A stretch of DNA of 64,000 nucleotides from a virus. A program made the position numbers and the translations under genes. The notes beneath the pieces are model-generated. The model searched no databases and was not told where the DNA came from. It saw only the letters and a program-made list of their open reading frames with translations. Shown in pieces: positions 1 to 54,499 of the stretch (positions are counted from its first letter, which is position 1; each line of letters begins with the position of its first letter). The stretch is from the IMG/VR virus record IMGVR_UViG_3300027815_000003, positions 1 through 64,000 of that record. One strand, written 5' to 3'.

Positions 1-80
1 GCTGTTGCAGACAAGCACCCTTTTCCTTTAAGTCATTTACCGTGATTCTCATTTGTTTTCTCCTGTTTTGTGATTAACCT

Positions 81-125
81 AGTTTAGCACAGCCCAAACT
101 AAAGTACAATACGTAAAACTACGTA
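81..125 (-). promoter_or_regulatory. sigma70-like promoter with upstream TACGTA dyad
   Basis: Minus strand: TACGTA-N4-TACGTA, then TTGTAC-N17-TAAACT. Confidence 0.75.
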
Positions 126-247
126 TTTTTCTTCTTTTTTGTTTTTTGTGAATACAAACAAATACGACATAATCCATTCATTTGAAAAGAATCTGGAGGC
201 ATTGGTTTCCTACATTTTACACATCTTATTAATTTTGTCATATTTTA

Positions 248-562
248 TTATTCTATATCCATTAACAAAAGATTTGTTTTCAAATACGGTTCAATAATCT
301 TTTTAGCCTCACAATATATTTCTTCATCACTAAAAAGACCATTATGGATAATACATATTTCCCCATTAGTTAAATTAATATTTTGGACTCCAGGAAGTTT
401 ATTTATTTTTTCAGCCAATTCAAATTGCCAATTTGATATTTTTTCTTGACTACTTAATCTAGATAAAAATACGCCCTTTACATAAAATGGGTGTACTAAA
501 ATTATAATACAATTATCTCTTATCTTTTTATCCTGACGTACAATAACTTGATTGGTGTCCAA
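248..562 (-). CDS. hypothetical protein
   Basis: 104-aa ORF on the dominant strand, downstream of a motif promoter at 598-642. Confidence 0.6.
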   Translation of the reverse strand: MDTNQVIVRQDKKIRDNCIIILVHPFYVKGVFLSRLSSQEKISNWQFELAEKINKLPGVQNINLTNGEICIIHNGLFSDEEIYCEAKKIIEPYLKTNLLLMDIE

Positions 563-597
563 ATTTTTTTCCCTTTCTTTTTGATTTAATACTTCCT

Positions 598-642
598 ATT
601 TTACTCTAAACTGGACTAAAAGTTAATACGTAGTTTTACTTA
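598..642 (-). promoter_or_regulatory. promoter with TACGTA dyad (degenerate -35)
   Basis: TAAGTA-N4-TACGTA-TTAACT-N17-TAAAAT. Confidence 0.55.
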
Positions 643-924
643 TTTATTATTTACACAGGCCAATTATCTAAAGTTTCTTTTGTTATTTCACAAGGCCAAC
701 AATTTTTTATTCTCAAAGATAGTCTTTCTATTAGTTGTTGTTTATTCCAGAAACCATCATGCCCATTTAATTCCATTATAGCATAAATATTTCCTGTAGA
801 ATCAAATTTCTGATATCGTATAAATCTAATATTTTCTATTTTTACACCTACAGTATGGTATATTTTCTCTTATTTAGAATAATCCAAGCCATATCAACGT
901 GGAGGTAAGAGAATTACACGGCAC

Positions 925-960
925 TCCACCAGGCTGGAATCGAACCAGCGATCACGAATT
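925..960 (-). pseudogene. 3' half of a split tRNA (no encoded CCA)
   Basis: Minus: AATTCGTGATC-GCTGG TTCGATT CCAGC-CTGGTGG-A. The acceptor strand CTGGTGG pairs 7/7 with CCACCAG at 2063-2069. Confidence 0.75.
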
Positions 961-966
961 TATTTT

Positions 967-993
967 TGGTGGGCCTGATTGGATTCAAACCTT
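967..993 (-). pseudogene. 3' fragment of a tRNA (Ile-like acceptor end)
   Basis: Minus: GG-TTTGAAT-CC-AAT-CAGGCCC-A-CCA; no matching 5' half adjacent. Confidence 0.65.
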
Positions 994-1161
994 ATCTTAT
1001 CATATTTAATAGTTAATTGCAATACGTAAAATTACTTATTTTCTAAAACTCATTTATAGTTCATTTTTCAGATATAAAAATAATTGTCTAAAAATGACAC
1101 GAAATCAAAAAATATGATATAATATAACTAATAAGTTCAAATCTTATTAAGGAGAATAAAA

Positions 1162-1872
1162 ATGGGAAAAACAAATGAGGAACTATTACAAATTATTATA
1201 AATTATTATAACGAATTTGGTAAACCACCTAGTAGTAAATGGAATATATCATTAACAAAAACATTAAAACAAAGACTAAATTATTCATGGGAAGATATTC
1301 TCAATTCTATAGGATTACAAACATTAAAACAAATTAATAAAAAGAATAATGAATTAAAATTTGGGTTAAAATTATGTATAGTCTGCAAAAAAGAAACAAA
1401 TAACCCTAAATTTTGTTCACATTCATGTTCTGCTATTTATAATAATACTGGCAAAATATCACATAATAAAAAAATAATAAAGAATTGTTTAAATTGCGAT
1501 ATTTTACTATTACATAATCCTAAATTTTGTTCAATAAAATGTCAACATCTATATGCAAAAAAACAATTTATAAAAAAATGGTTAAATGGAGAAATAACAG
1601 GTACTATAAAAAATAAATGTTCATCTATAATTAGAGATTATTTATTTGAACAAAATAATAACAAATGTGGTGAATGTGGATGGGCTAAGATTAATAAAAC
1701 TTCTGGTAAAATTCCTTTACAAGTAGATCATATTGACGGTAATTGGACAAATAATAAACCAAAAAATTTAAGATTACTTTGTCCTAATTGTCATTCATTA
1801 ACTCCCACATATGGTGCATTAAATAAAAGAATTGATAAAAATAGGACAAAAGGCCAAAGAAAGAAATGGTAG
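1162..1872 (+). CDS. HNH homing endonuclease with Cys-rich N-terminus, antisense to tRNA genes
   Basis: CxxC clusters; LQVDHIDGNWTNN...LRLLCPNCHS HNH motif; AAGGAG SD; own promoter (ATGACA-N18-TATAAT). Confidence 0.9.
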   Translation: MGKTNEELLQIIINYYNEFGKPPSSKWNISLTKTLKQRLNYSWEDILNSIGLQTLKQINKKNNELKFGLKLCIVCKKETNNPKFCSHSCSAIYNNTGKISHNKKIIKNCLNCDILLLHNPKFCSIKCQHLYAKKQFIKKWLNGEITGTIKNKCSSIIRDYLFEQNNNKCGECGWAKINKTSGKIPLQVDHIDGNWTNNKPKNLRLLCPNCHSLTPTYGALNKRIDKNRTKGQRKKW

Positions 1873-1959
1873 GGAGTGTAGGAATCAAACCTACGTTTTG
1901 GATTTATCAGATCCTAGCCTGGTTATAAAACAGGTGTCCTTTCACTGAACGAACTCCCC
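1867..1959 (-). tRNA. tRNA with UAU anticodon and long variable arm (Leu-like body)
   Basis: GGGGAGT/ACTCCCT-A-CCA acceptor; D arm GTTC/GGAC; anticodon arm CCTGT-TTTATAA-CCAGG (one mismatch); long V arm; T arm GTAGG-TTTGATT-CCTAC. Confidence 0.8.
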
Positions 1960-1984
1960 ATATAATGTGATATTTATTCTTCTA

Positions 1985-2040
1985 CTGAACTAATCTTGCA
2001 CGGATAAGAGAATCCTATTCTTTCGTTGAATTAACGTTCC
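1985..2040 (-). pseudogene. degenerate tRNA-like 5' segment
   Basis: TA-ATTC-AACGAAA-GAAT D-arm-like hairpin followed by CCGTGCAA; similar segment at 4030-4068. Confidence 0.4.
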
Positions 2041-2069
2041 TCGCGCTACTACCACTGAGCTACTGGTGG
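2039..2069 (-). pseudogene. 5' half of the split tRNA
   Basis: CCACCAG-TA-GCTCAGTGGTAGTAGC-GCGAGG; acceptor and anticodon-stem strands complement 925-960. Confidence 0.75.
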
Positions 2070-2106
2070 TAGTATTGGATATTTTATATACCATATATTG
2101 TGATAT

Positions 2107-3036
2107 TTACTTTATATTATTTAGATTTTCATTAGCCTCTCTACAATATCTTCCTATCCTTTCAATTGCTAGTTCATTAGCAATCGTTTTTACAGCATAA
2201 CTTTGAGATAATGCCAATTCTACTTCACAACTAACTTTTGAGAGTAATGTTCTTAATTGATATTCTAATTGTTCGGCTTTAGTTAATTTTACCATTTTTA
2301 TTCTCTCTCTCTTTATAATGATACAGTTTCTCTTATTTGGATCCATCCATTAGGCCCGACACGATAAACTACACCATTTTGATTATTTTTATCTATAAGT
2401 TTCCGATATTCTTCTTTTTCTTTCCGTACAAATAACGGGGCATTACTATATGAATAATAATCATATCTCTCTTTATCAATGAAAGAATGTGGTGGATTTA
2501 TTTCCCAGGATGTATTTTTTCGATATCCATAAATCCAATCTGAATCTTCTCTAAAACAATAAACCTCTGGTGAATAATGAGAATAATCACGCCAGATAAA
2601 AACATTTCTTATCAGTAACGATATTAGGTTATCTGGATGCCTAACAACAAGATATCCATTTTTAGTTTTACCCAAATATTCTACCATTTCTCCATCATAC
2701 TCTACTCTATCACCGATATTAATGCTCATTTTTATCACTTTCTTTATGTTATGTTATTAGACAAGTTCACCTGCGTTAGTATATCAGAATCAGTCTTTGT
2801 TGTCTATACGTAATTCTACGTAGGTTTTAGTTTGGTAATTCTGGTACATCTATTGCCATAAACCAACCATTACCTCTTTCAGATTCCCACATAAATACGC
2901 CTTCGCAAACTAAAATAAAACCATTTTTAATTTCTGAAGTTCTTACAAAATAAAGTTTATCATCTTTATCTTGTTTAAATCTCTTCCCATAAAACCAATA
3001 AAGTCCTGGTGTTTTTGGAAGTTCTTTCGTCCACAT
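2107..3036 (-). other. three small hypothetical CDS (2107-2346, 2313-2738, 2827-3036)
   Basis: Closely packed minus-strand ORFs from the ORF track; no recognisable motifs. Confidence 0.55.
2778..2822 (-). promoter_or_regulatory. promoter with TACGTA dyad
   Basis: TACGTA-GAAT-TACGTA-TAGACA-N17-TATACT. Confidence 0.85.
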
Positions 3037-3069
3037 TTTTGTTTATTGTCTCATTTCTTTTTTAATTTT

Positions 3070-3149
3070 TGGTAGCCTGTAAGGGATTTAGACCCTTGAA
3101 TCTTCACTTTGAAAGAGTGATGTCCTAAATCAGACTAGACGAACAGGCC
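3070..3149 (-). tRNA. tRNA-Glu(UUC)
   Basis: GGCCTGT/ACAGGCT-A-CCA; TCACT-CTTTCAA-AGTGA; atypical T loop TCTAAAT. Confidence 0.85.
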
Positions 3150-3155
3150 ATATTT

Positions 3156-3200
3156 AGTTTAGCACAATTGAACATGAAAATCAATACGTAAAAATACTTA
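3156..3200 (-). promoter_or_regulatory. motif promoter positioned to drive tRNA-Glu
   Basis: TAAGTA-N4-TACGTA-TTGATT-N17-TAAACT ending 7 nt upstream of the tRNA. Confidence 0.7.
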
Positions 3201-3234
3201 TCTTTTGGTGTTACTGGTTATAGTTGAAAAACAT

Positions 3235-3263
3235 TTGACAAAAAATCAAAAGTATGATATAAT
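3235..3263 (+). promoter_or_regulatory. consensus sigma70 promoter of the second HNH gene
   Basis: TTGACA-N17-TATAAT with extended TG. Confidence 0.85.
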
Positions 3264-3291
3264 ATATTTAAATAATAAAGGAGTTACCAAA

Positions 3292-3945
3292 ATGAAAGAA
3301 AAAATCCCTAATTGTATTTGTTCAAATTGTCATAAGGAATTTTATAAGAAACCAGTAGAAATTAAACGTTATAAAAATCATTTTTGTTGTAAAGAATGTG
3401 TTAATGTTTTTTACAAGCCACAATTAAGATATTGTATCAATTGTCATAAATTATTAATTAAAGCACAAAAGAAATTTTGTTCTACCTCCTGTGCTGCTAT
3501 AATAAATGGTCATCTTTATCCTAAAAGAAAAAAAATAAAAGAAACAAAATTATGTATAAGCTGTAATAAAATTTTAAATAAAGGTAAAAAATATTGTTCC
3601 AATAAATGCAGATGGGAAAAAAGAAATATAAAACTCATTAATGACTGGTTAGGTAATTTATTTGAAGGGGGTGATAAAACAAATGGTTTAGTAAATCATA
3701 TTATACGTCGTTATCTCTTACAACAAAATAATTATAAATGTTCAAAATGTGAATGGGGAGAAACAAACATTTATTCTAACACAATCCCATTAGAGGTTGA
3801 TCATATTGACGGAGATTGGAGAAACAATAGACCAGAAAATTTAAGGGTTCTTTGCCCTAATTGTCATGCATTAACTCCTACCTATAAAGCTCTAAATAAA
3901 ACTAATTTTGGAAGACCGATTAAAACAGATAGAAAGAAATGGTAA
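3292..3945 (+). CDS. HNH homing endonuclease (paralog of 1162-1872)
   Basis: LEVDHIDGDWRNN...LRVLCPNCHA; start moved to ATG 3292 (MKEKIP) after AAGGAG SD; ends RKKW like its paralog. Confidence 0.9.
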   Translation: MKEKIPNCICSNCHKEFYKKPVEIKRYKNHFCCKECVNVFYKPQLRYCINCHKLLIKAQKKFCSTSCAAIINGHLYPKRKKIKETKLCISCNKILNKGKKYCSNKCRWEKRNIKLINDWLGNLFEGGDKTNGLVNHIIRRYLLQQNNYKCSKCEWGETNIYSNTIPLEVDHIDGDWRNNRPENLRVLCPNCHALTPTYKALNKTNFGRPIKTDRKKW

Positions 3946-4022
3946 TGGTGAAAATGGCGGGGTACGATCCCGCAGTACCCTGTTTAAAAGACAGGTGCTT
4001 TATCCATTTAAGCTACATTTTC
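3946..4022 (-). tRNA. tRNA-Lys(UUU)
   Basis: GAAAATG/CATTTTC-A-CCA; CCTGT-CTTTTAA-ACAGG; T loop ATCGTAC. Confidence 0.88.
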
Positions 4023-4029
4023 ACGAAGT

Positions 4030-4068
4030 CCGTTGCACGGCTACTCTATCGTTGAGTTAGCGGCCCGT
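4030..4068 (-). pseudogene. truncated tRNA-like 5' segment
   Basis: GGGCCGC-TA-ACTC-AACGATA-GAGT-A-GCCGTGCAACGG; no T arm or 3' acceptor strand. Confidence 0.5.
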
Positions 4069-4083
4069 AAATCTCTACTATCT

Positions 4084-4118
4084 AGTTTATCACAGTCTGT
4101 CTTTGTTGTCTATACGTA
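4084..4118 (-). promoter_or_regulatory. motif promoter (single TACGTA)
   Basis: TACGTA-TAGACA-N17-TAAACT. Confidence 0.75.
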
Positions 4119-4147
4119 AACGATCCGTTTCGGATACGCAAAATTAC

Positions 4148-6591
4148 TTATTTACAAGGAACTATATCGCCTAAAGTTATTACATGATGATTACTATACG
4201 TATAATTATCAATTGCTTCATAACATTTATCAGAAATTGGGCTTTTAATAATTTTCCAATCACCATTAGTTTCTCGGACATTAATATCTGGGCCGCAAGA
4301 AACTAAAAATAGTAAAATAACCGATAGCAAAAATAACTTTATATCTATTCTTCTACTTTTTCTATTTCCCATATCGCTGCCCAAAACCATAACCAGTTAA
4401 AATATTTTTTGAATCTGTTGTTATCTAGTATTTATATTGTCCTACAGGAGTTACCTCTTTACAATAATTATGTATTATTAAGGTCGGAGGATCTATGTTA
4501 ACTATTACCCCGTACCCCTTTTTATTTACTACATGACTACGCATATTTATTCCACAAGAACAATAAAATCCACCTTCACCATCACAAACATTATATTTTA
4601 CTTTATCCCCAATTTTAGGTTCCCAAGAAATATTTTCTGGTTGCCAAATTTCTGGATTTTCCTCTTGTGTAATTGGCAAATAATTATTATTTTGCATTAT
4701 CATTATCTCCCATTAAAATTATTGCTATCCCCAAAAAAAAGAAAACACCATGAAAGGCAAGATTGGCAATACTATAATGAATAATATTACAGTCTAGATA
4801 CCATCCAGGAATTCCAAATAGGATAAATATTGTCCCTATAATGTATTTACCAAGTTTCATTTTATTATTATCCTTTATATTGTGCTATTAGTATATCACT
4901 ATCAGTCTTTGTTGTCTATACGTAAAACTACTCAAAAAACCAACTATTTTTTGGTTTATTTTTTTGCATCCATTCTTCGCAATAAGAATGATCATTTCTA
5001 TTACATTTTTGGGAAGAAAAATATACAATTAAAGAGGCAATTAGATTGAGTATCCCACCAATAATGAAAACCCTTGAAATATATTCACAATTATCTGCAC
5101 TTAAATGTTCCTTTTTAAAAGATTTTATTATAATTTTACCACTAATCCACCCACAAATAAACCACAAAGTAATTATCCCTATTATTAGCATTTTTTATCC
5201 TTTCATAAACATAGGTGATTTTATATCTATCCCATCAATATCATAAAAATCAATTTTTATGATAAGCGTATCACTAAATTGCTCCGATAATTTATTTTGT
5301 GCATTTCTTATTGCTTCTTGATGATAAGCACCAAACGCACCAACAGAAATTAATGTATTTTTATCTTTTTGTATCTGATATTCAAACCAACATTGCTTTT
5401 TATCATTTGTCCAAAAAGAAATATATCTTATAATTTTCATTTTCTAAATAAGTATTCCAGCTTTCTTTCTATATTGGGATAATGCTGTTCTCATTTTAAG
5501 AATTTTTGTAATATAAGTTTTATTCATTTTAATATTCCCCGCATCTATGATAATTTTCTGTACTTTCGTCAATTACTATTTCTGAACGACAAAAATTACA
5601 AGAAGTTGTAAGAGATTTAGATAATAGCGTACTACAATTTGTACAACTATACGCTGAAATATAAATACTGTTTTTATCACCAGAATTTTCTCTATGACAT
5701 TTATCACATTCTATTGTATACTTAAAGTTCATATTATTTTACTTTCTAGGTTTATGAATATTCTTTTTCTTTTTAGCTTCTAGTTCTTCTTTTTGCCGTT
5801 GTCTGAATTGTTTTCTATCTTCCAATAAAATCAACCCATAGATATTTGCTTCTTGTTCTGTAGTAAATATTTTACTCTCGTAATAAATATTACCAGATCC
5901 AATCCCAGTTTCCTTACACATATATTCTACTTTATCTTCACTACTGGCAGTATCAATCCTAATAGAACCAATAGTTAGCCGACTAACATCAACAGTTGGA
6001 TTTTCATAATCATTAATAAATCCAGTTGAAAGGAAACCGCTCATACAGGTTTGACACTGTACTTTAAATACTTCGCCTGCTGGAGTTTTTACTTCCCATG
6101 TTTTAAATTCCAAACAATCTGGACAAGGTATCCTCTTTGCTTTGTCGGAAATATATGGATAAAATACTATTTGACCTATTGAATATTTTGGATTAGGTAA
6201 CATCTTCTTTCAAATCCCTTTCATTTATTGTTTCTTTAACCCAATTTTTTGGTAATGATTCTAACAATTGTACCCTTTGTTCAAATTGTCTTTCTTTATG
6301 ACACCATAATTTATTTGTATAGTTATATGGAGACCAAACAGACAAAACTATACCCTCTTTTCCTAGAATAGTCAGAGATAAAGCTAGTCCATTACCATCC
6401 CCTTCTCTAATTGCTTCTTCTAATAATTCTAAACTAATAAAGTATTTTTCATCTTTAGCTCTAAACGACCAAGCATATTCATCATCGCACCAATCCATTA
6501 TTTCTTCTGTATTATCTAAAGTGCTTCTAAATTTATTTAGAACTGCAATAAACCGCAGTTCATATTTTTCTTTAATTTGTTCTACGTCCAT
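4148..6591 (-). other. block of small hypothetical CDS (4148-4390 lipoprotein-like, 4425-4703, 4928-5191 membrane, 5195-5440, 5529-5732 and 5739-6203 Cys-rich, 6193-6591)
   Basis: Contiguous minus-strand ORFs; FLVSC lipobox-like motif in the first; CxxC pairs in two. Confidence 0.55.
4890..4930 (-). promoter_or_regulatory. motif promoter
   Basis: TACGTA-TAGACA-N17-TATACT. Confidence 0.8.
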
Positions 6592-6592
6592 T

Positions 6593-7351
6593 TTATATTC
6601 CTAATCTTATCTTTGCTATATTATAAAATTGCTCATTTTTCTCTATTCCAATAAATTTACGTCCCGTTTCTTTTGCTGCTAATAGAGTTGTCCCAGATCC
6701 AGCGACATTATCTAAAACAATATCACCCTCATTTGAATATGTTAAACAAAGATATTTTAAAAGGGCTAAAGGCTTCTGTGTACTATGTAATTTTTCTTTA
6801 TCAGCAGCAAACCTTAAAACAGATTTAGGATAACGTTTACCATCAGATACAGTAGTATGATGTAAATCTTTTACTTCACCATAATCCATACTATCACCAC
6901 GCCTAGTCATGGTATATGGTTTTCCCTCTTCAAATTGTGGATGATAAACTGGCAATTTCTTATAGAATACAAGAATTTGTTCATGGCTTCTTAATGGCAT
7001 TCTATTGGCATTTAAGAAGCCAGTAGCTAATGGTTTTTCCCAGATTAAATCATAACGAAATAATTTAGGATTACTGTTATAAAGTTCTGCTGAAAATGGA
7101 AACGTAGCATTAAGAATAATAGCACCATTATCTTTAATGATGCGTTCATATTGTTTCCACAATAGTTCTAGATCAATTTCCACATCCCATACCGATCTTT
7201 TGTTTAATACACCTTAACCGTAGGGCAGGTCGCAACAAATCATATCTATAGATTTATCTTCTATATGATTCATAGCAACCAGACAATCTGCATTAATAAT
7301 ATTATTTATCAATTTAGTATTATCTTGCCCTACTAAAATTTCTCCTTTCAT
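6593..7351 (-). pseudogene. beta-class N6-adenine/N4-cytosine DNA methyltransferase interrupted by an in-frame TAA
   Basis: ...DMICCDLPYG*GVLNKRSVWDVEIDLELLWKQYERII...HSTQKP...DNVAGSGTT; TAA at 7214-7216 directly after the catalytic DLPY motif. Confidence 0.85.
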
Positions 7352-7364
7352 ATTTTTTATTATA

Positions 7365-8126
7365 TCATTCATCAATAAATAAATCTCCTTTCAAATTAGC
7401 CTCTATTTTAAATTTTCTCCATTCTTTATCGTTCATAGAAGATTTTGATTTATTCTCAAACCAAGTTAAAAACCTAAGATTGTCTATATTATCTGTACCT
7501 CCGTTTTTTTTACTTATCTTATGGTCTATTGATGGTTGATACCAAATATTTTTATTTTTTAAAAGCCATAAATTATAAATTCTATTAAATTGCTCATCAA
7601 AATAAAATTTATCTAAAAATTGTAGATACCATTCTGTGTTTACATTATATCTTTTATTCCCATTATCATTTCTCGGAGAAATAGTATGATTTAAACACAT
7701 TAATTTTTCTGTATCTTTAAATCTAGATATATCACTTAAGGAAATATTAAATCTAGAATGAGAAATTAAATTCTTTCTTCTGTTTTCGTCAATATTACAC
7801 CAACTTAATCTTTTTATCTTTATCTTATTTTTGTGGTCTTCGGTTAAATGTTTATTTTTATCCCAGGGTATTCTTCCCAATCCAGCTAAACTAATTTTCT
7901 TTTTTGTTTCTTCTGTATGTGGTTTTTGTTTTTCTTTTTTAGGTTTTATTTTCCCCTTATGTTTTCGTAAAGAATCTATTTTGACATTATTTCTTTTTAA
8001 AATTCTTTCGATAAAATGATGATTGGTTTTAAATAAACCAGATATTTGTCTCAAAGAAAAATTTTCTTCCAAATATAATCTTATAATTTCTAATATTTCT
8101 ACCTCTGTAAATATTTTTTGTCCCAT
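7365..8126 (-). CDS. HNH homing endonuclease with NUMOD3-like motif
   Basis: HTEETKKKIS; SIDHKISKKNGGTDNIDNLRFLTWFEN; probable start MGQK, ORF track start 8162. Confidence 0.85.
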   Translation of the reverse strand: MGQKIFTEVEILEIIRLYLEENFSLRQISGLFKTNHHFIERILKRNNVKIDSLRKHKGKIKPKKEKQKPHTEETKKKISLAGLGRIPWDKNKHLTEDHKNKIKIKRLSWCNIDENRRKNLISHSRFNISLSDISRFKDTEKLMCLNHTISPRNDNGNKRYNVNTEWYLQFLDKFYFDEQFNRIYNLWLLKNKNIWYQPSIDHKISKKNGGTDNIDNLRFLTWFENKSKSSMNDKEWRKFKIEANLKGDLFIDE

Positions 8127-8202
8127 TTTATTCTCCCTGTATAATAATTTATACAAGGACATTATAACATATAAATGGGATATTGTAAATGTTTTTGTTT
8201 TT

Positions 8203-8293
8203 TAAAATAATAAATCTGCAAGAATGAGATTTATAGATTTATCTTCTATATCTTTCATTACTTCTAAACAATCACCTAAAATAAGAGAATTTG
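8203..8293 (-). pseudogene. orphan N-terminal fragment of a DNA methyltransferase
   Basis: VIEPNSLILGDCLEVMKDIEDKSINLILADL-LF*; ends exactly before the PY of the catalytic motif. Confidence 0.75.
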
Positions 8294-9007
8294 GCTCAAT
8301 CACTTTACTTTTTTACAACCCAACGCAAAACTTGTGATGTATGAAATAAATTTGATACGACAAGATATAATAGAATTGCATTCCAGTATGATAATGTCGG
8401 AAAAGATAAACTCATATTATCGACAAAAGCGCCCCAACAAACCATTATACCCCAAGCCCTTGAAAAAAAACTTAGTATATTTAAACTATATGTCCAATGT
8501 GGTTCAATTTGCATTTTTATTCTCTTTCTGTATTATCAGTTCTTTATAATGTTTGGAATAATTTACACTTTGATGTTCATGGCTTTTACCATCATTATTT
8601 TGTGTGTGTTCATGTAAATTAACATGAGAATGATCTACCCATAAACCATTATGACCTGGTAATTGTGCGCTATGTTTATGCGAATGAAAATGTTTATAAT
8701 CCATTTGTCTTCCTTTCTTTTCAGGTAAACCATTCCAACCCAGAGAGCCATCCTGGGAGAGGTTTTTTATTGCTTCTGTTTTATTCTTAGCCCACTTGCT
8801 CATTAAGGCAGGTAAGATACATCTTGCGAACCTAAGTTACTAACGACTAGAAGTTGTAAAAGTTACATTACGCCCACAACCCCGACACTTACCCTTTGGC
8901 ATACCAGTATTTTCATCCTTGTTTACTTGTCCCACTGGTGTGGCACGGCAACAATAAGAGACTAGCTTCATCATGTTTTTTATTTTTCCTTTCTGTAAGA
9001 TGTTGGT

Positions 9008-20922: not shown

Positions 20923-20955
20923 GCTCCAGATAGGATTTGAACCTATAACCAGTCG
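20923..20955 (-). pseudogene. 3' remnant of a tRNA
   Basis: GTT-ATAGG-TTCAAAT-CCTAT-CTGGAGC-T; 5' half absent. Confidence 0.65.
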
Positions 20956-52200: not shown

Positions 52201-54499
52201 CATCTAATTGTTTCTCTTTTATTTTATTAAAATATTCTTCATGGTATTTCACTCTTACTGGATGATATGACATTGGAATATTTCCATCTGGGTGATTTGT
52301 TGGTGTATTAGATTCTGTATGATTATGTAATCCAGAACCTTGCGCCTCTATTGCAATAAACTCACTTTTTTGTAATGGTACTTCTTCAAAAGTATCTCTA
52401 TTTATTTTATGTGTAAAATTTACACTATTGATATCAAAGGCAATTACCTCATTGGATGGAACAGAATTAGAATATTTATCATCTATAATATTGTTCAAAA
52501 TAAGACCGTCATAACCAGAACTTTTAGCCTTATCTATTAATTTTTTCATTGGCAAATTTAACCAAGATACATTTTTAACATCAATTACAAATGGATTTTT
52601 TAATGAAACTTCTCCAGAATAAATATTTTTGCCATACCCATGTGCAGATGTCCAATTATCAGTTAAAAATACACCCTCACCAGTTTCCGAAACATTTACT
52701 TTTGGATTTATGAAATCTGAATCAGAACCATGAAAAATTTTTGCAACAATAGGCTCCCCAGTTTTAGCTTTATGTAATTCTGGAATTTTTTTCGGTTTAT
52801 TTATATTTTCTTGTTTTGCCTGTTCTTTATATTTATTGTGTTGTTCAATAAAATAATCTGGATGATTTTCAACAGATATTGGATGCCTATACCATCCATC
52901 ATGTTCATGTGTTGGTGCAACGCCAGGAACCCCAGCTTCTATCTTAATACTTTTTTGTAAATATTTTTCCTTTACATATTTTAATGCTTCATCTTTATTT
53001 GTTAAAACACCATTTTCTTGTTTATCTTTTATATCTAAAAGAACATTACCTAATTCTTTCCCAGTTTTCATACCTAAGCCAAGTAGATCATTGCCAGTAA
53101 TTAATGGAATTACTTTACCACTTTCTGTCACACCAAATTGTTTAGAAACTTCTTCTAGTTTATTATTAAACCAATCTATTTCTTCTTTTCCAGGATTTAT
53201 TACTGTCCCGTCTTCATTTCTATGTAATCTACCCGTAACATCTGCCTCTGATACGGCAGATAATAATTGAAGTTTGTGCATTCCGTATTTATTTATAGCT
53301 TTTCTAAAAGCCGAATCAGAAGCTCCATCTCCATGAAAAGAAGCTGGCATTAAATGATGTTCTACTATAAATAAAACATTATCTACAATATCAGATTCAT
53401 TAGTTAATTTATCTAAAAATTTCTTAGCAGGTTCTACACCAGCCTCTTCGTGTCCTGGTTGAACTGGATAACCCTTATCACTTATTTTTGTAACTAGAGG
53501 TTTACCAATATCATGTAATAAAGAAGCATACATTATTATTTGTTTGTCTTTTAAATCTGTAAATCTTTTCGCAATTTCTGTAGCTTTATCAACAGTTAAA
53601 AGTATATGGTTCCATACATTTCCTTCTGCATGATAATCTGGTCTTTGTTCTGTTTCATGTAAAACATAAAATTCTGGATAATATCTTCTTAATACATCCA
53701 TAGAATCTAAAGCCTCTAATCCAACAGAAGGTTTAGGAGATTTTAATAATAATTTATTAAACTCTTCAAAAATTCTTTCTTTGGGAAGCTGAGATAAATC
53801 CATAGATGATGCTAATTTTATTGTTTCTGGAGCAATTGTAAATCCAAATCTAGCAGCAAACTGAGATGCACGATATACTCTTAATGCATCTTCCACAAAT
53901 GTTTTATCATCTATATGTCTGATAACTTTATTTTTTAAATCTTCTTCTCCTCCAAAAAAATCTAGCAATTGATTAGATTTTATATCAAACATTAATGCAT
54001 TTATTGTAAAATCACGTCTTCGTGCGGCACTCTCTGGTTGCATAAATGGATCTTCGGTTACTTCAAAATCTGTATGTTTTTCACCAATTTTTGATTCTTT
54101 TCTTGGTAAAGAAATATCAAAATTACCCACTTTAAATACAGCAAATTGAGCACCCACCTGCTCACTTTTTGCTCCCAATTCGTTATTTAATATATATCCT
54201 AATTTGTCTTTAGGAATTCCATAAACTTCTATATCAAAATCTTTAGGAGCAATTCCAAGTAAGGCATCTCTTACACCACCACCTACTAAACAAGGATTGC
54301 CATATTTTGATAAAACATTTGTTACTTTCGTTAAATCTACATCATTAAAAATAAATTGTTGTATATTTTTAACCGCAGTAAAAAAATCTTGATGATAAAC
54401 CACTCTTACAGGATGCTCTAACCAGCCATCATGTTTATGATAAGCAACTTTTTGCTTCATTATTAAGTTTTCCAGTATATTTAATTTATTTATTGTCAT
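49268..54499 (-). CDS. 1743-aa polyvalent protein: CCA-adding enzyme (NTase+HD), ART-like domain, two zincin metallopeptidases, GNAT acetyltransferase
   Basis: VGGGVRD..DFDIEV, RRDFTINA, EDALRVYR, HDIGK; FHGS...GVFLTD; two LIHEIGH...Y...EFFAECYAS; YQGKGISSKLL. Confidence 0.85.
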   Translation of the reverse strand: MTINKLNILENLIMKQKVAYHKHDGWLEHPVRVVYHQDFFTAVKNIQQFIFNDVDLTKVTNVLSKYGNPCLVGGGVRDALLGIAPKDFDIEVYGIPKDKLGYILNNELGAKSEQVGAQFAVFKVGNFDISLPRKESKIGEKHTDFEVTEDPFMQPESAARRRDFTINALMFDIKSNQLLDFFGGEEDLKNKVIRHIDDKTFVEDALRVYRASQFAARFGFTIAPETIKLASSMDLSQLPKERIFEEFNKLLLKSPKPSVGLEALDSMDVLRRYYPEFYVLHETEQRPDYHAEGNVWNHILLTVDKATEIAKRFTDLKDKQIIMYASLLHDIGKPLVTKISDKGYPVQPGHEEAGVEPAKKFLDKLTNESDIVDNVLFIVEHHLMPASFHGDGASDSAFRKAINKYGMHKLQLLSAVSEADVTGRLHRNEDGTVINPGKEEIDWFNNKLEEVSKQFGVTESGKVIPLITGNDLLGLGMKTGKELGNVLLDIKDKQENGVLTNKDEALKYVKEKYLQKSIKIEAGVPGVAPTHEHDGWYRHPISVENHPDYFIEQHNKYKEQAKQENINKPKKIPELHKAKTGEPIVAKIFHGSDSDFINPKVNVSETGEGVFLTDNWTSAHGYGKNIYSGEVSLKNPFVIDVKNVSWLNLPMKKLIDKAKSSGYDGLILNNIIDDKYSNSVPSNEVIAFDINSVNFTHKINRDTFEEVPLQKSEFIAIEAQGSGLHNHTESNTPTNHPDGNIPMSYHPVRVKYHEEYFNKIKEKQLDESLRRFEEKNKLRYKNNGEQKLPINWLFNKVVDFIGNKTDLSELDKTIIKERIFNAATWDYQFYYPKNDKDFGINEQERVLVVPFGFNGDTYHIYLTKDENIFFRKVENNVRPQDSPVFNFGVPSNDDYKLDHHITEKRYDKDGNTEDFEIGRRRDILENKIQDQDKRVFYDKNYDAIISWVPSDHLHKFTGISLNPNDFVEKEVGIYKGEIKKMQYIGFFHPINNGIELYGDADYFSLIHEIGHAVHLSTIGRILGMDLMEENHKLFEEASDRNMGFPSNYSKTNEREFFAECYASYLTSKTSFKDRNYKAFLFMEKVFEHMKGIDDNYLNFGIAKSENKEKESIGDPKGVGRFEEGLPNLGKDEQIEKQFTPKNFNPIRTLTSAFKHETSGKLAQHTHEEHPQNHPDGNMIFPLHPVSVDFHQRWFEEQKEKQGKTGEVQNRGDLFKPSEFELERRKTLYKQLVVDDFSKDMFNGPHYKNIISGGPPASHLLKISKISISNEYWLDNEEDVVKNLGKGIKSISGIYYPDNNSIRLSKGADSFDLIHEIGHSLLHGTVGRQVKDRYFDKIESIYDHCINTDSGFPTDYAREDAYEFFAECYASFVTQNKHFQKRNRQMYDAVHEIFEYFRDADDVFLSTGILKSEDNKKIFIDPKGVGIFNPNLPDLIEDGSEEKIENQNPPRPGLVPQSGDWQHPDRWVLPEEAEKYKEESVKTEEPKKKPVQLHSTLQTSKSMYDKDIRSFSKGNWGLDTIQNMFASNMDNVDVEMTQLTNSLDVEMSISFDLLDNTKERTPSSGGPFGSMVRTFSRELDNKGIQRIIIKHDQLSLLKSYQGKGISSKLLDSMEDEYKKNGVYAIDLDTDEIGCYAWALQGYDFVSKYNLDKIKNHFIKTLRIKLSKNIINQVQFEKMIKEVGNFTHSWEFASWNPTKTQWGKHIGKAWLLNTPWRGRKILSDDNEGYRIGKQYRERKNATTKI

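Follow-up and report, generated by a model that had tools for sequence, protein, structure and literature searches.

We analysed a stretch of 64,000 nucleotides of viral DNA (positions 1 to 64,000 of the IMG/VR record IMGVR_UViG_3300027815_000003; called the window here), concentrating on a tRNA gene that lies on the minus strand between positions 2069 and 925. This gene is broken in the anticodon loop, and its 5′ half and 3′ half are separated by an insert of approximately 1.08 kb (2038-964). The insert contains a second tRNA, with the anticodon UAU, and in antisense orientation the gene for an HNH endonuclease (HNH1). The broken gene is called the outer tRNA and the tRNA in the insert the nested tRNA. 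The features of the locus are listed in Table 1 together with those of a second, related cassette, which encodes the endonuclease HNH2.

The two halves of the outer tRNA gene

The original prediction for this locus had located both halves on the minus strand, with an acceptor stem of seven pairs and the discriminator A73, and reading of the sequence bears this out. All seven acceptor pairs are present (7/7), and the T arm is likewise perfect. No CCA is encoded in the outer tRNA, since A73 is followed by GTG; the prediction had noted this alongside a CCA-adding domain in the phage, which lies at 53918-54289. When the two halves were joined artificially, a check suggested with the prediction, 216 of 396 joins gave an ARAGORN call for a tRNA that reaches from position 1 to A73. 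The native, unjoined locus gave no call with ARAGORN, with or without the intron option, and none with Rfam. The 190-kb genome contains no more than four canonical T arms outside of the called tRNAs, one of which is that of the outer 3′ half. Because such T arms are so few and because the 5′ half can be aligned to real tRNA-Ile genes (from the loci L014, L011 and L016) up to G31, the halves are more than a chance resemblance. They are a real split tRNA gene that is broken in the anticodon loop.

The anticodon stem had been proposed as CGCGAG/TTCGTG. A stem does exist here, but the proposed register is wrong, taking in positions 25-26 and leaving a variable loop of three nucleotides. In register, the stem reads CGAGG/ATTCG, with three Watson-Crick pairs, one G-U pair and one G31·A39 mismatch. 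The D stem of the 5′ half contains one extra base in its 3′ strand. After G31, the 5′ half reads AAC where tRNA-Ile genes have CTT, and the 3′ half resumes with ATAA at 963-960, which is compatible with A35 U36 A37 A38. Alignment to the tRNA-Ile genes thus places C32-U33-N34 on neither side of the split. The halves of the predicted tRNA are real, but they do not add up to a whole one. The motif AATTC is found at both junctions (2032-2028 and 960-956), as had been noticed before with the remark that this might be chance. We rejected AATTC as a target-site duplication, since the restored loop would be AACGTTA and would lack U33. The repeat is best taken as chance or microhomology.

Metagenomes were scanned for intact tRNAs that share the first 15 and the last 8 bases of the outer gene. 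Four real tRNAs were returned: Ile(UAU) in L011 and in L014, Ile(GAU) in L016 and Phe(GAA) in L009. The tRNA order in L011, Lys-Glu-Ile, is also the order on the minus strand of the window. The outer 3′ half agrees with tRNA-Ile genes from A35 on (ATAA, positions 35-38), a four-nucleotide match that in AT-rich DNA is weak evidence. The C1-G72 pair and A73 had been read as Tyr-like; the same acceptor and the same start of the D stem occur in two Ile(UAU), one Ile(GAU) and one Phe tRNA. Since the look-alikes are mostly Ile tRNAs and the alignment includes A35 onward, these comparisons suggest that the outer gene was most likely a tRNA-Ile with an NAU anticodon, most likely UAU, and not Tyr-like. 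BLAST of each half against phage records gave only generic, insignificant tRNA similarity, from which no isotype could be read.

The other contigs examined that carry this part of the window match it, and two that were compared at the DNA level are 100% identical over positions 1-8729. Exact-pattern scans for the halves or an intact allele gave nothing in viral contigs, in metagenomes (3′ half) or in prokaryote genomes. A search for homologues of the flanking 141-aa open reading frame (ORF) returned only the protein itself, on contigs that have this part of the window in common.

Table 1. Features of the split tRNA locus and of the second HNH cassette (positions in the window; positions in tRNAs follow the standard numbering used in the text).
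Feature	Position	Strand	Description
19-nt direct repeat, copy 1	2091-2109	minus	upstream of the outer 5′ half
Outer tRNA, 5′ half	2039-2069	minus	CCACCAG TA GCTC AGTGGTAG TAGC G CGAGG; tRNA positions 1-31: acceptor CCACCAG, U8 A9, D arm, G26, anticodon-stem 5′ strand CGAGG
Two tRNA 5′-part remnants	1977-2038	minus	left end of the insert; each TA + 4-bp stem + 7-nt loop (D-arm-like)
19-nt direct repeat, copy 2 (TAAATATCACAWTATATGG)	1958-1976	minus	
Nested tRNA(UAU)	1867-1959	minus	93 nt, five arms, A73, encoded CCA
HNH endonuclease gene (HNH1)	1162-1872	plus	236 aa, antisense to the tRNAs
Predicted HNH1 promoter	1094-1123	plus	ATGACA-18-TGnTATAAT; 11/12 consensus matches, consensus match only
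Early promoter	1003-1037	minus	ATAAGTAATTTTACGTA TTGCAA-N-TGATAAGAT; directed at the orphan 3′ fragment and the outer 3′ half
Orphan tRNA 3′ fragment	967-991	minus	GGTTTGAATCC AAT CAGGCCC A CCA; 25 nt
Outer tRNA, 3′ half	925-963	minus	tRNA positions 35-73; 959-925 (positions 39-73): ATTCG (39-43), variable loop TGATC, T arm GCTGG TTCGATT CCAGC, acceptor CTGGTGG, A73
tRNA-Glu	3070-3149	minus	after the next early promoter
Paralogous cassette	3292-4075		HNH2, tRNA-Lys(UUU) and D-arm-like leader
HNH2	3292-3945	plus	47% aa identity to HNH1; ORF end = ACCA-TTTCTTTCT
tRNA-Lys(UUU)	3946-4022	minus	
D-arm-like leader of the second cassette	4075-4028		

The insert and the HNH family

All components that the prediction had listed between the halves, namely tRNA-like remnants, the tRNA(UAU), the HNH gene and a tRNA 3′ fragment, could be located, and the HNH gene is the only ORF of at least 60 aa within the insert. 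The first of the two remnants at the left end shows homology with the tRNA-Lys leader (4059-4033) that includes CCGTGCAA, common to both, and one compensatory pair in the hairpin. Since G30-G31 of the outer 5′ half is where this homology sets in, it marks the left junction, which agrees with this start within 2 nt. The two copies of the 19-nt direct repeat are identical at 18 of 19 positions, bracket 133 bp including the outer 5′ half and are found nowhere else in the genome. One copy holds the stop codon of the ORF at 2107-2346, and the other adjoins the first base of the nested tRNA.

The nested tRNA is called by ARAGORN and matched by the Rfam model RF00005 with 46 bits, and its minimum free energy (MFE) fold is the cloverleaf. 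It has a U31·C39 mismatch, a D loop without GG and a T loop with U56, so that an A19-U56 swap is possible. In its extra arm (GGAU-CUGAUAA-AUCC) the 4-bp stem carries a 7-nt loop, CUGAUAA, that is letter for letter the anticodon loop of tRNA-Ile(GAU). Another phage locus of the HNH family (L056:4495-4588) encodes a tRNA(UAU) of 94 nt that has five arms in the same arrangement, with GAUA in its extra loop. The sequence of the nested tRNA points to a body related to Ile tRNAs rather than a Leu-like one.

HNH1 contains two zinc-ribbon repeats and an HNH_3 domain, which scores 27.3 bits against the Pfam cutoff of 24.8. In a 28-member family alignment HNH1 has every invariant Cys, His and Asn, and the nuclease domain is intact. 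The last codon and the stop codon of the gene (TGG TAG) are the complement of the A73-CCA end of the nested tRNA. An HNH ORF that ends exactly on the ACCA of a tRNA is found in the second cassette as well.

The early promoter near the right end of the insert can be aligned with the promoters ahead of tRNA-Glu and tRNA-Lys. The orphan 3′ fragment begins exactly at the end of this promoter and consists of half a T arm, the 3′ strand of an acceptor stem and CCA; it includes a repeat (D8) that resembles the T loop of the nested tRNA. A second split tRNA inside the insert, made up of the 5′ remnant at approximately 2000 and this fragment (991-967), was rejected, as the acceptor strands GCAAGAT/CAGGCCC do not pair. 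With the leader of the second cassette (GGGCCGC), pairing of the fragment would be possible at 5 of 7 positions, which is suggestive only. A stretch of 14 nt in the nested tRNA (1923-1910) is complementary to 941-928 in the outer 3′ half; this match was also discarded, being at about chance level in a rough calculation.

HNH1 has 854 homologues at E≤1e-5. We surveyed 66 IMG/VR viral loci with a recognisable ORF, and a tRNA was found within 300 nt in 56 of them and within 2.5 kb in 64. All eight loci that came from protein look-ups (L004-L008, L019-L021) lie in or beside tRNA genes or arrays. Most members of the family are located between tRNA genes and some inside of them. In L029 and L043 the HNH insert interrupts a tRNA-Ile(GAU) in the anticodon arm; in L029 (2287-3008) the break is exactly between positions 32 and 33 with a clean junction, and the insert ends pair as an 11-bp helix (AAAACTTAATA / TATTAAGTTTT). 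The inserts of L072 and L046 are located at U34|A35 of tRNA-Leu(UAA), where a G precedes the 3′ exon. The inserts of these four loci gave no Rfam match to a group I core even at E≤0.05. L055, L070 and L006 resemble the present locus in that pieces of an outer tRNA flank a nested tRNA and the ORF in an untidy manner. For an unrecognised tRNA splicing route, L029 is a better candidate than the present locus. With its intact domain, a predicted promoter of its own and homologues in tRNA arrays, HNH1 would belong to the free-standing homing endonucleases of tRNA clusters.

Origin of the interruption

A group I core (RF00028) gave no match at E≤10 at positions 800-4200 and none genome-wide, with positive controls included. 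There is no omega-G, as no G is found between 973 and 956, and the splicing endonuclease EndA (PF01974) is absent from the genome, again with positive controls. For a bulge-helix-bulge (BHB) motif or a closing helix the flanks were cofolded, and the result was no better than with shuffled flanks (z = +0.85). A helix of GGAUUCUCUUAUC (2011-1999) with GAUAAGG..GAAUCC (997-982) that emerged from the cofolding was rejected, since shuffled flanks reach a total energy that is at least as good. The failure of the original prediction to identify group I or BHB structure therefore holds. Because C32-U33-N34 are missing, no simple joining of the halves gives a canonical loop. An integrase-type island was considered and rejected: the insert has no integrase, and no tRNA 3′ part follows the 5′ half, which means that the gene is not restored. 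Between the two options originally offered, an insertion scar and a spliced tRNA, the scar is favoured, and splicing is disfavoured by the lack of ribozyme, omega-G, EndA, BHB and loop bases. The outer gene is, on the basis of its sequence, most likely dead (a pseudogene) rather than spliced.

We consider it probable, with a chance of roughly two in three, that the outer gene is what remains of a resident tRNA-Ile after disruption by a tRNA-targeting homing-endonuclease cassette, the tRNA(UAU) of which replaces it. The resident phage gene would have been split in the anticodon loop by the block 2038-964, which would be centred on a free-standing HNH homing-endonuclease gene from a family that lives in phage tRNA clusters and presumably cuts into them. 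By analogy with SegB of phage T4, a double-strand break made by the endonuclease in or next to the tRNA gene would be repaired from a donor array. Through this repair the endonuclease gene and its promoter would have been copied in together with a tRNA(UAU) of different build and with scraps of neighbouring tRNAs, and three loop bases would have been lost. The outer gene would then be incapable of giving a canonical tRNA and, probably not being mended at the RNA level, would remain as a pseudogene. The nested tRNA, presumably charged with isoleucine, would assume the decoding of AUA, and invasion would be cheap for the phage because of this takeover. Since its sequence differs from that of the outer gene, at which the endonuclease would be aimed, the nested tRNA should escape cleavage.

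The nested tRNA is the only Ile tRNA found by ARAGORN in the genome, and AUA is the sixth commonest codon of the phage (45 per 1000, 51% of the Ile codons), so that it plausibly makes up for the loss of the outer gene. The extents of the two halves (1-31 and 35-73) complement each other, and all seven acceptor pairs are present, which fits one break in one gene. Signs of decay in the outer gene are the absence of C32-U33-N34, G31 opposite A39 and the extra base in the D stem.

Several observations weigh against a disrupted tRNA-Ile with a replacing cassette. The acceptor stem and the T arm of the relic are still perfect despite the 30% GC content of the genome, and therefore the event is recent or some use has been retained. 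The insert is untidy, with the direct repeat and several tRNA scraps; there was thus more than one event, in an order that is not recoverable. In some relatives (L029) the inserts have clean junctions and ends closed by a helix, and no ribozyme is recognised in them, so that elements of this family may be spliced by an unrecognised route; at the present locus the loss of loop bases speaks against this. Position 34, the first anticodon base of the outer gene, is lost. No endonuclease-free or intact allele was found among the contigs carrying this part of the window or in the pattern scans, which did not return a near relative either. Finally, three matches to the RNA-ligase family and the CCA-adding domain lower the confidence in a pseudogene.

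The arrangement could also have arisen without a cassette from outside, if repeated endonuclease breaks together with duplications and deletions at microhomologies had scrambled the tRNA array of the phage itself, in the manner of SegB-driven segmental amplification with later decay; the outer gene would be dead in this case, too. We think that this is rather unlikely. The 19-nt repeat, which is unique in the genome and brackets 133 bp with the 5′ half, is in line with such scrambling, and the same is true for the two tandem D-arm remnants, the orphan 3′ fragment and the diverged second copy of the unit 2 kb away. Moreover, SegB makes microhomology-bounded repeat units in phage T6 (PMC13096335). 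However, the halves meet at a single point of the loop without overlap, as expected from one insertion, and true insertions of the HNH family into tRNA-Ile loops are found among the relatives (L029). In addition, with 47% aa identity between HNH1 and HNH2, the duplication would be old relative to the still-perfect acceptor and T arms. That the outer tRNA is functional and rejoined as RNA, either by excision of the insert or by a phage RNA ligase that seals halves made from separate promoters, is made very improbable by the loop: neither side supplies C32-U33-N34, and no cut-and-join restores U33. A group I core, omega-G, EndA and RtcB are all lacking, flank pairing does not exceed that of shuffles (z = +0.85), and the D stem and the 31-39 pair are defective. 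The outer tRNA would also be dispensable because the anticodon of the nested tRNA serves the same kind of codon. Rejoining would nevertheless account for the perfect acceptor stem and T arm and for an early promoter approximately 35 nt upstream of the 3′ half; the three RNA-ligase matches (PF09414) and the CCA-adding domain, which a CCA-less gene needs, are consistent with it as well. So are the clean HNH inserts that interrupt the loops of tRNA-Ile and tRNA-Leu in relatives and have no recognised ribozyme, and the tRNA 'introns' of Lak phages, which possibly contain a tRNA (PMC6784885).

In a specific version of this, a working split tRNA-Ile would be assembled from a 5′ half transcribed from an upstream promoter and a 3′ half transcribed from 1037-1003, which would pair through the acceptor and anticodon stems, be trimmed, be sealed by one of the three RNA-ligase-family proteins of the phage and receive CCA from the phage enzyme. 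This seems highly improbable to us; if true, it would be a protein-dependent tRNA splicing or trans-joining route new to bacteria and their viruses. The halves might instead have been co-opted, for example for a minihelix RNA that would be transcribed from the promoter and in which the orphan fragment would pair through CCACCA with UGGUGG of the 3′ half beside the T arm. CCACCA at 972-967 pairs with the 3′ acceptor strand at 6 of 7 positions, but this six-base match is largely explained by a CCA end that is preceded by CC, and the MFE fold of the transcript does not contain the minihelix. Although an early promoter lies directly upstream and tRNA-like modules without anticodon occur elsewhere (orphan T arms at approximately 33.0-33.2 kb), co-option appears highly improbable. 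It is just as doubtful that the minihelix would be a decoy or substrate for tRNA-targeting defences, for the CCA-adding enzyme or for the Ro60/Y-RNA system of the phage.

Comparison with known systems and genomic surroundings

Free-standing homing endonucleases in phage tRNA clusters are already known, as are phage tRNA introns that possibly hold a tRNA (PMC6784885). SegB of T4 recognises a T-arm motif and cleaves behind the CCA at the 3′ ends of tRNA genes, and on homing adjacent tRNA genes move with it (PMC2330249); it also drives microhomology-bounded amplification (PMC13096335). As in T4 and T6, a selfish nuclease gene is located here between phage tRNA genes. SegB is characterised by a target in a conserved feature of tRNA genes, by co-inheritance of flanking tRNAs and by rearrangements at microhomologies; here, the HNH ORF ends on the ACCA of a tRNA. 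Whereas SegB is a free-standing GIY-YIG enzyme, HNH1 combines an HNH domain with zinc ribbons, its gene is antisense to the tRNAs and its cleavage is predicted only. Furthermore, a resident tRNA gene is physically split here, with a second tRNA of matching anticodon type inside, which is undescribed for SegB.

The 'enigmatic' tRNA introns of Lak megaphages, one of which possibly encodes a tRNA (Devoto et al., 2019; PMC6784885), have in common with the present locus the interruption in the anticodon region, an insert with a tRNA-like gene and no assignment to a known intron class. The inserts of the Lak phages are short and have clean boundaries, they are identical in different cohorts, and some relatives have them while others do not, whereas here the insert is 1.08 kb long and contains an HNH gene, junction bases are lost and no insert-free allele is known. 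Group I introns are found in the anticodon loops of bacterial and phage tRNAs, for instance tRNA-Leu(UAA), and some of them contain homing-endonuclease ORFs. They are similar to the present locus in that an interruption of the anticodon loop is tied to a homing endonuclease, and the HNH relatives in L072 and L046 are located at the classic U34|A35 site of tRNA-Leu(UAA). In contrast to group I introns, the present insert has no ribozyme core, omega-G or restorable loop, and its ORF is antisense with a predicted promoter of its own. The split and permuted tRNA genes of Nanoarchaeum and other archaea (reviewed in PMC4033280 and PMC4090602) likewise consist of two half-genes broken in the anticodon region, each possibly with its own promoter. 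The archaeal halves carry a complementary leader and trailer that form a BHB cut by EndA, whereas here BHB and EndA are lacking and the loop is incomplete.

In the literature searched we found no nuclease cassette that interrupts a tRNA gene and at the same time contributes a tRNA with an anticodon of the same type. If the proposed disruption by a cassette is correct, the locus would represent a naturally occurring element that follows the principle 'cut the resident gene, bring your own copy': the nuclease would break a tRNA gene that the phage needs, AUA being its sixth commonest codon, and the element would supply a divergent tRNA that has an anticodon for the same kind of codon and that the nuclease should not recognise. 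This would explain how such cassettes spread at little cost, and it would account for tRNA scraps in phage arrays and for the odd shapes of phage tRNAs. It is a single, Ile-specific case, limited by the lack of an insert-free relative and by the untidy junction. The locus offers a pair of substrates for assays, an intact tRNA-Ile gene of the outer type and the nested tRNA gene.

Some further observations concern the other tRNAs and the genome. Non-canonical elbows are present in tRNA-Glu (T loop UCUAAAU, D loop without GG) and tRNA-Lys (T loop AUCGUAC); the elbow of the outer tRNA-Ile is, unlike these, fully canonical. The phage is represented in JGI sample 3300000574 and in ENA ERZ27253376. 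In two other assemblies of it, a JGI contig of 50 kb and an ENA contig of 179,140 bp, position 1 of the window is joined directly to 179298. Both do not contain the last 11 kb of the record (179299-190284), which hold tRNA-Arg(UCU) and tRNA-Leu(UAA). This tail is bounded by repeats of approximately 130-320 bp (178980-179298 versus 190152-190284 plus 1-127 of the window), and the difference reflects either natural presence/absence variation or an assembly that passed through two strains. Among the surveyed loci, a GOLLD RNA (L070:1703-2166, 200.8 bits) adjoins an HNH-bearing tRNA array, and tmRNA genes (L023:3221-3653 and L024:1552-1993) adjoin such arrays in phage contigs.

An orphan canonical T arm (ATAGG TTCAAAT CCTAT) that is followed by CTGGAGC was found on the minus strand at 20930-20946, beside an early-promoter motif; no matching 5′ half was found nearby. 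The orphan T arms at approximately 33.0-33.2 kb belong to tRNA-like modules without anticodons. The early-promoter class comprises approximately 44 sites in the genome of the form ATA[AC]GTAATTTTACGTA-TTGaca-N-TGnTAtAcT. An upstream double motif, TACGTA-N5-TACGTA, is followed in this class by a −35-like TTGACA and an extended −10 TGnTAtAcT. The sites are concentrated at 169-190 kb and 1-30 kb and are mostly on the minus strand, for example at 124, 1037, 3199, 4933 and 9515.

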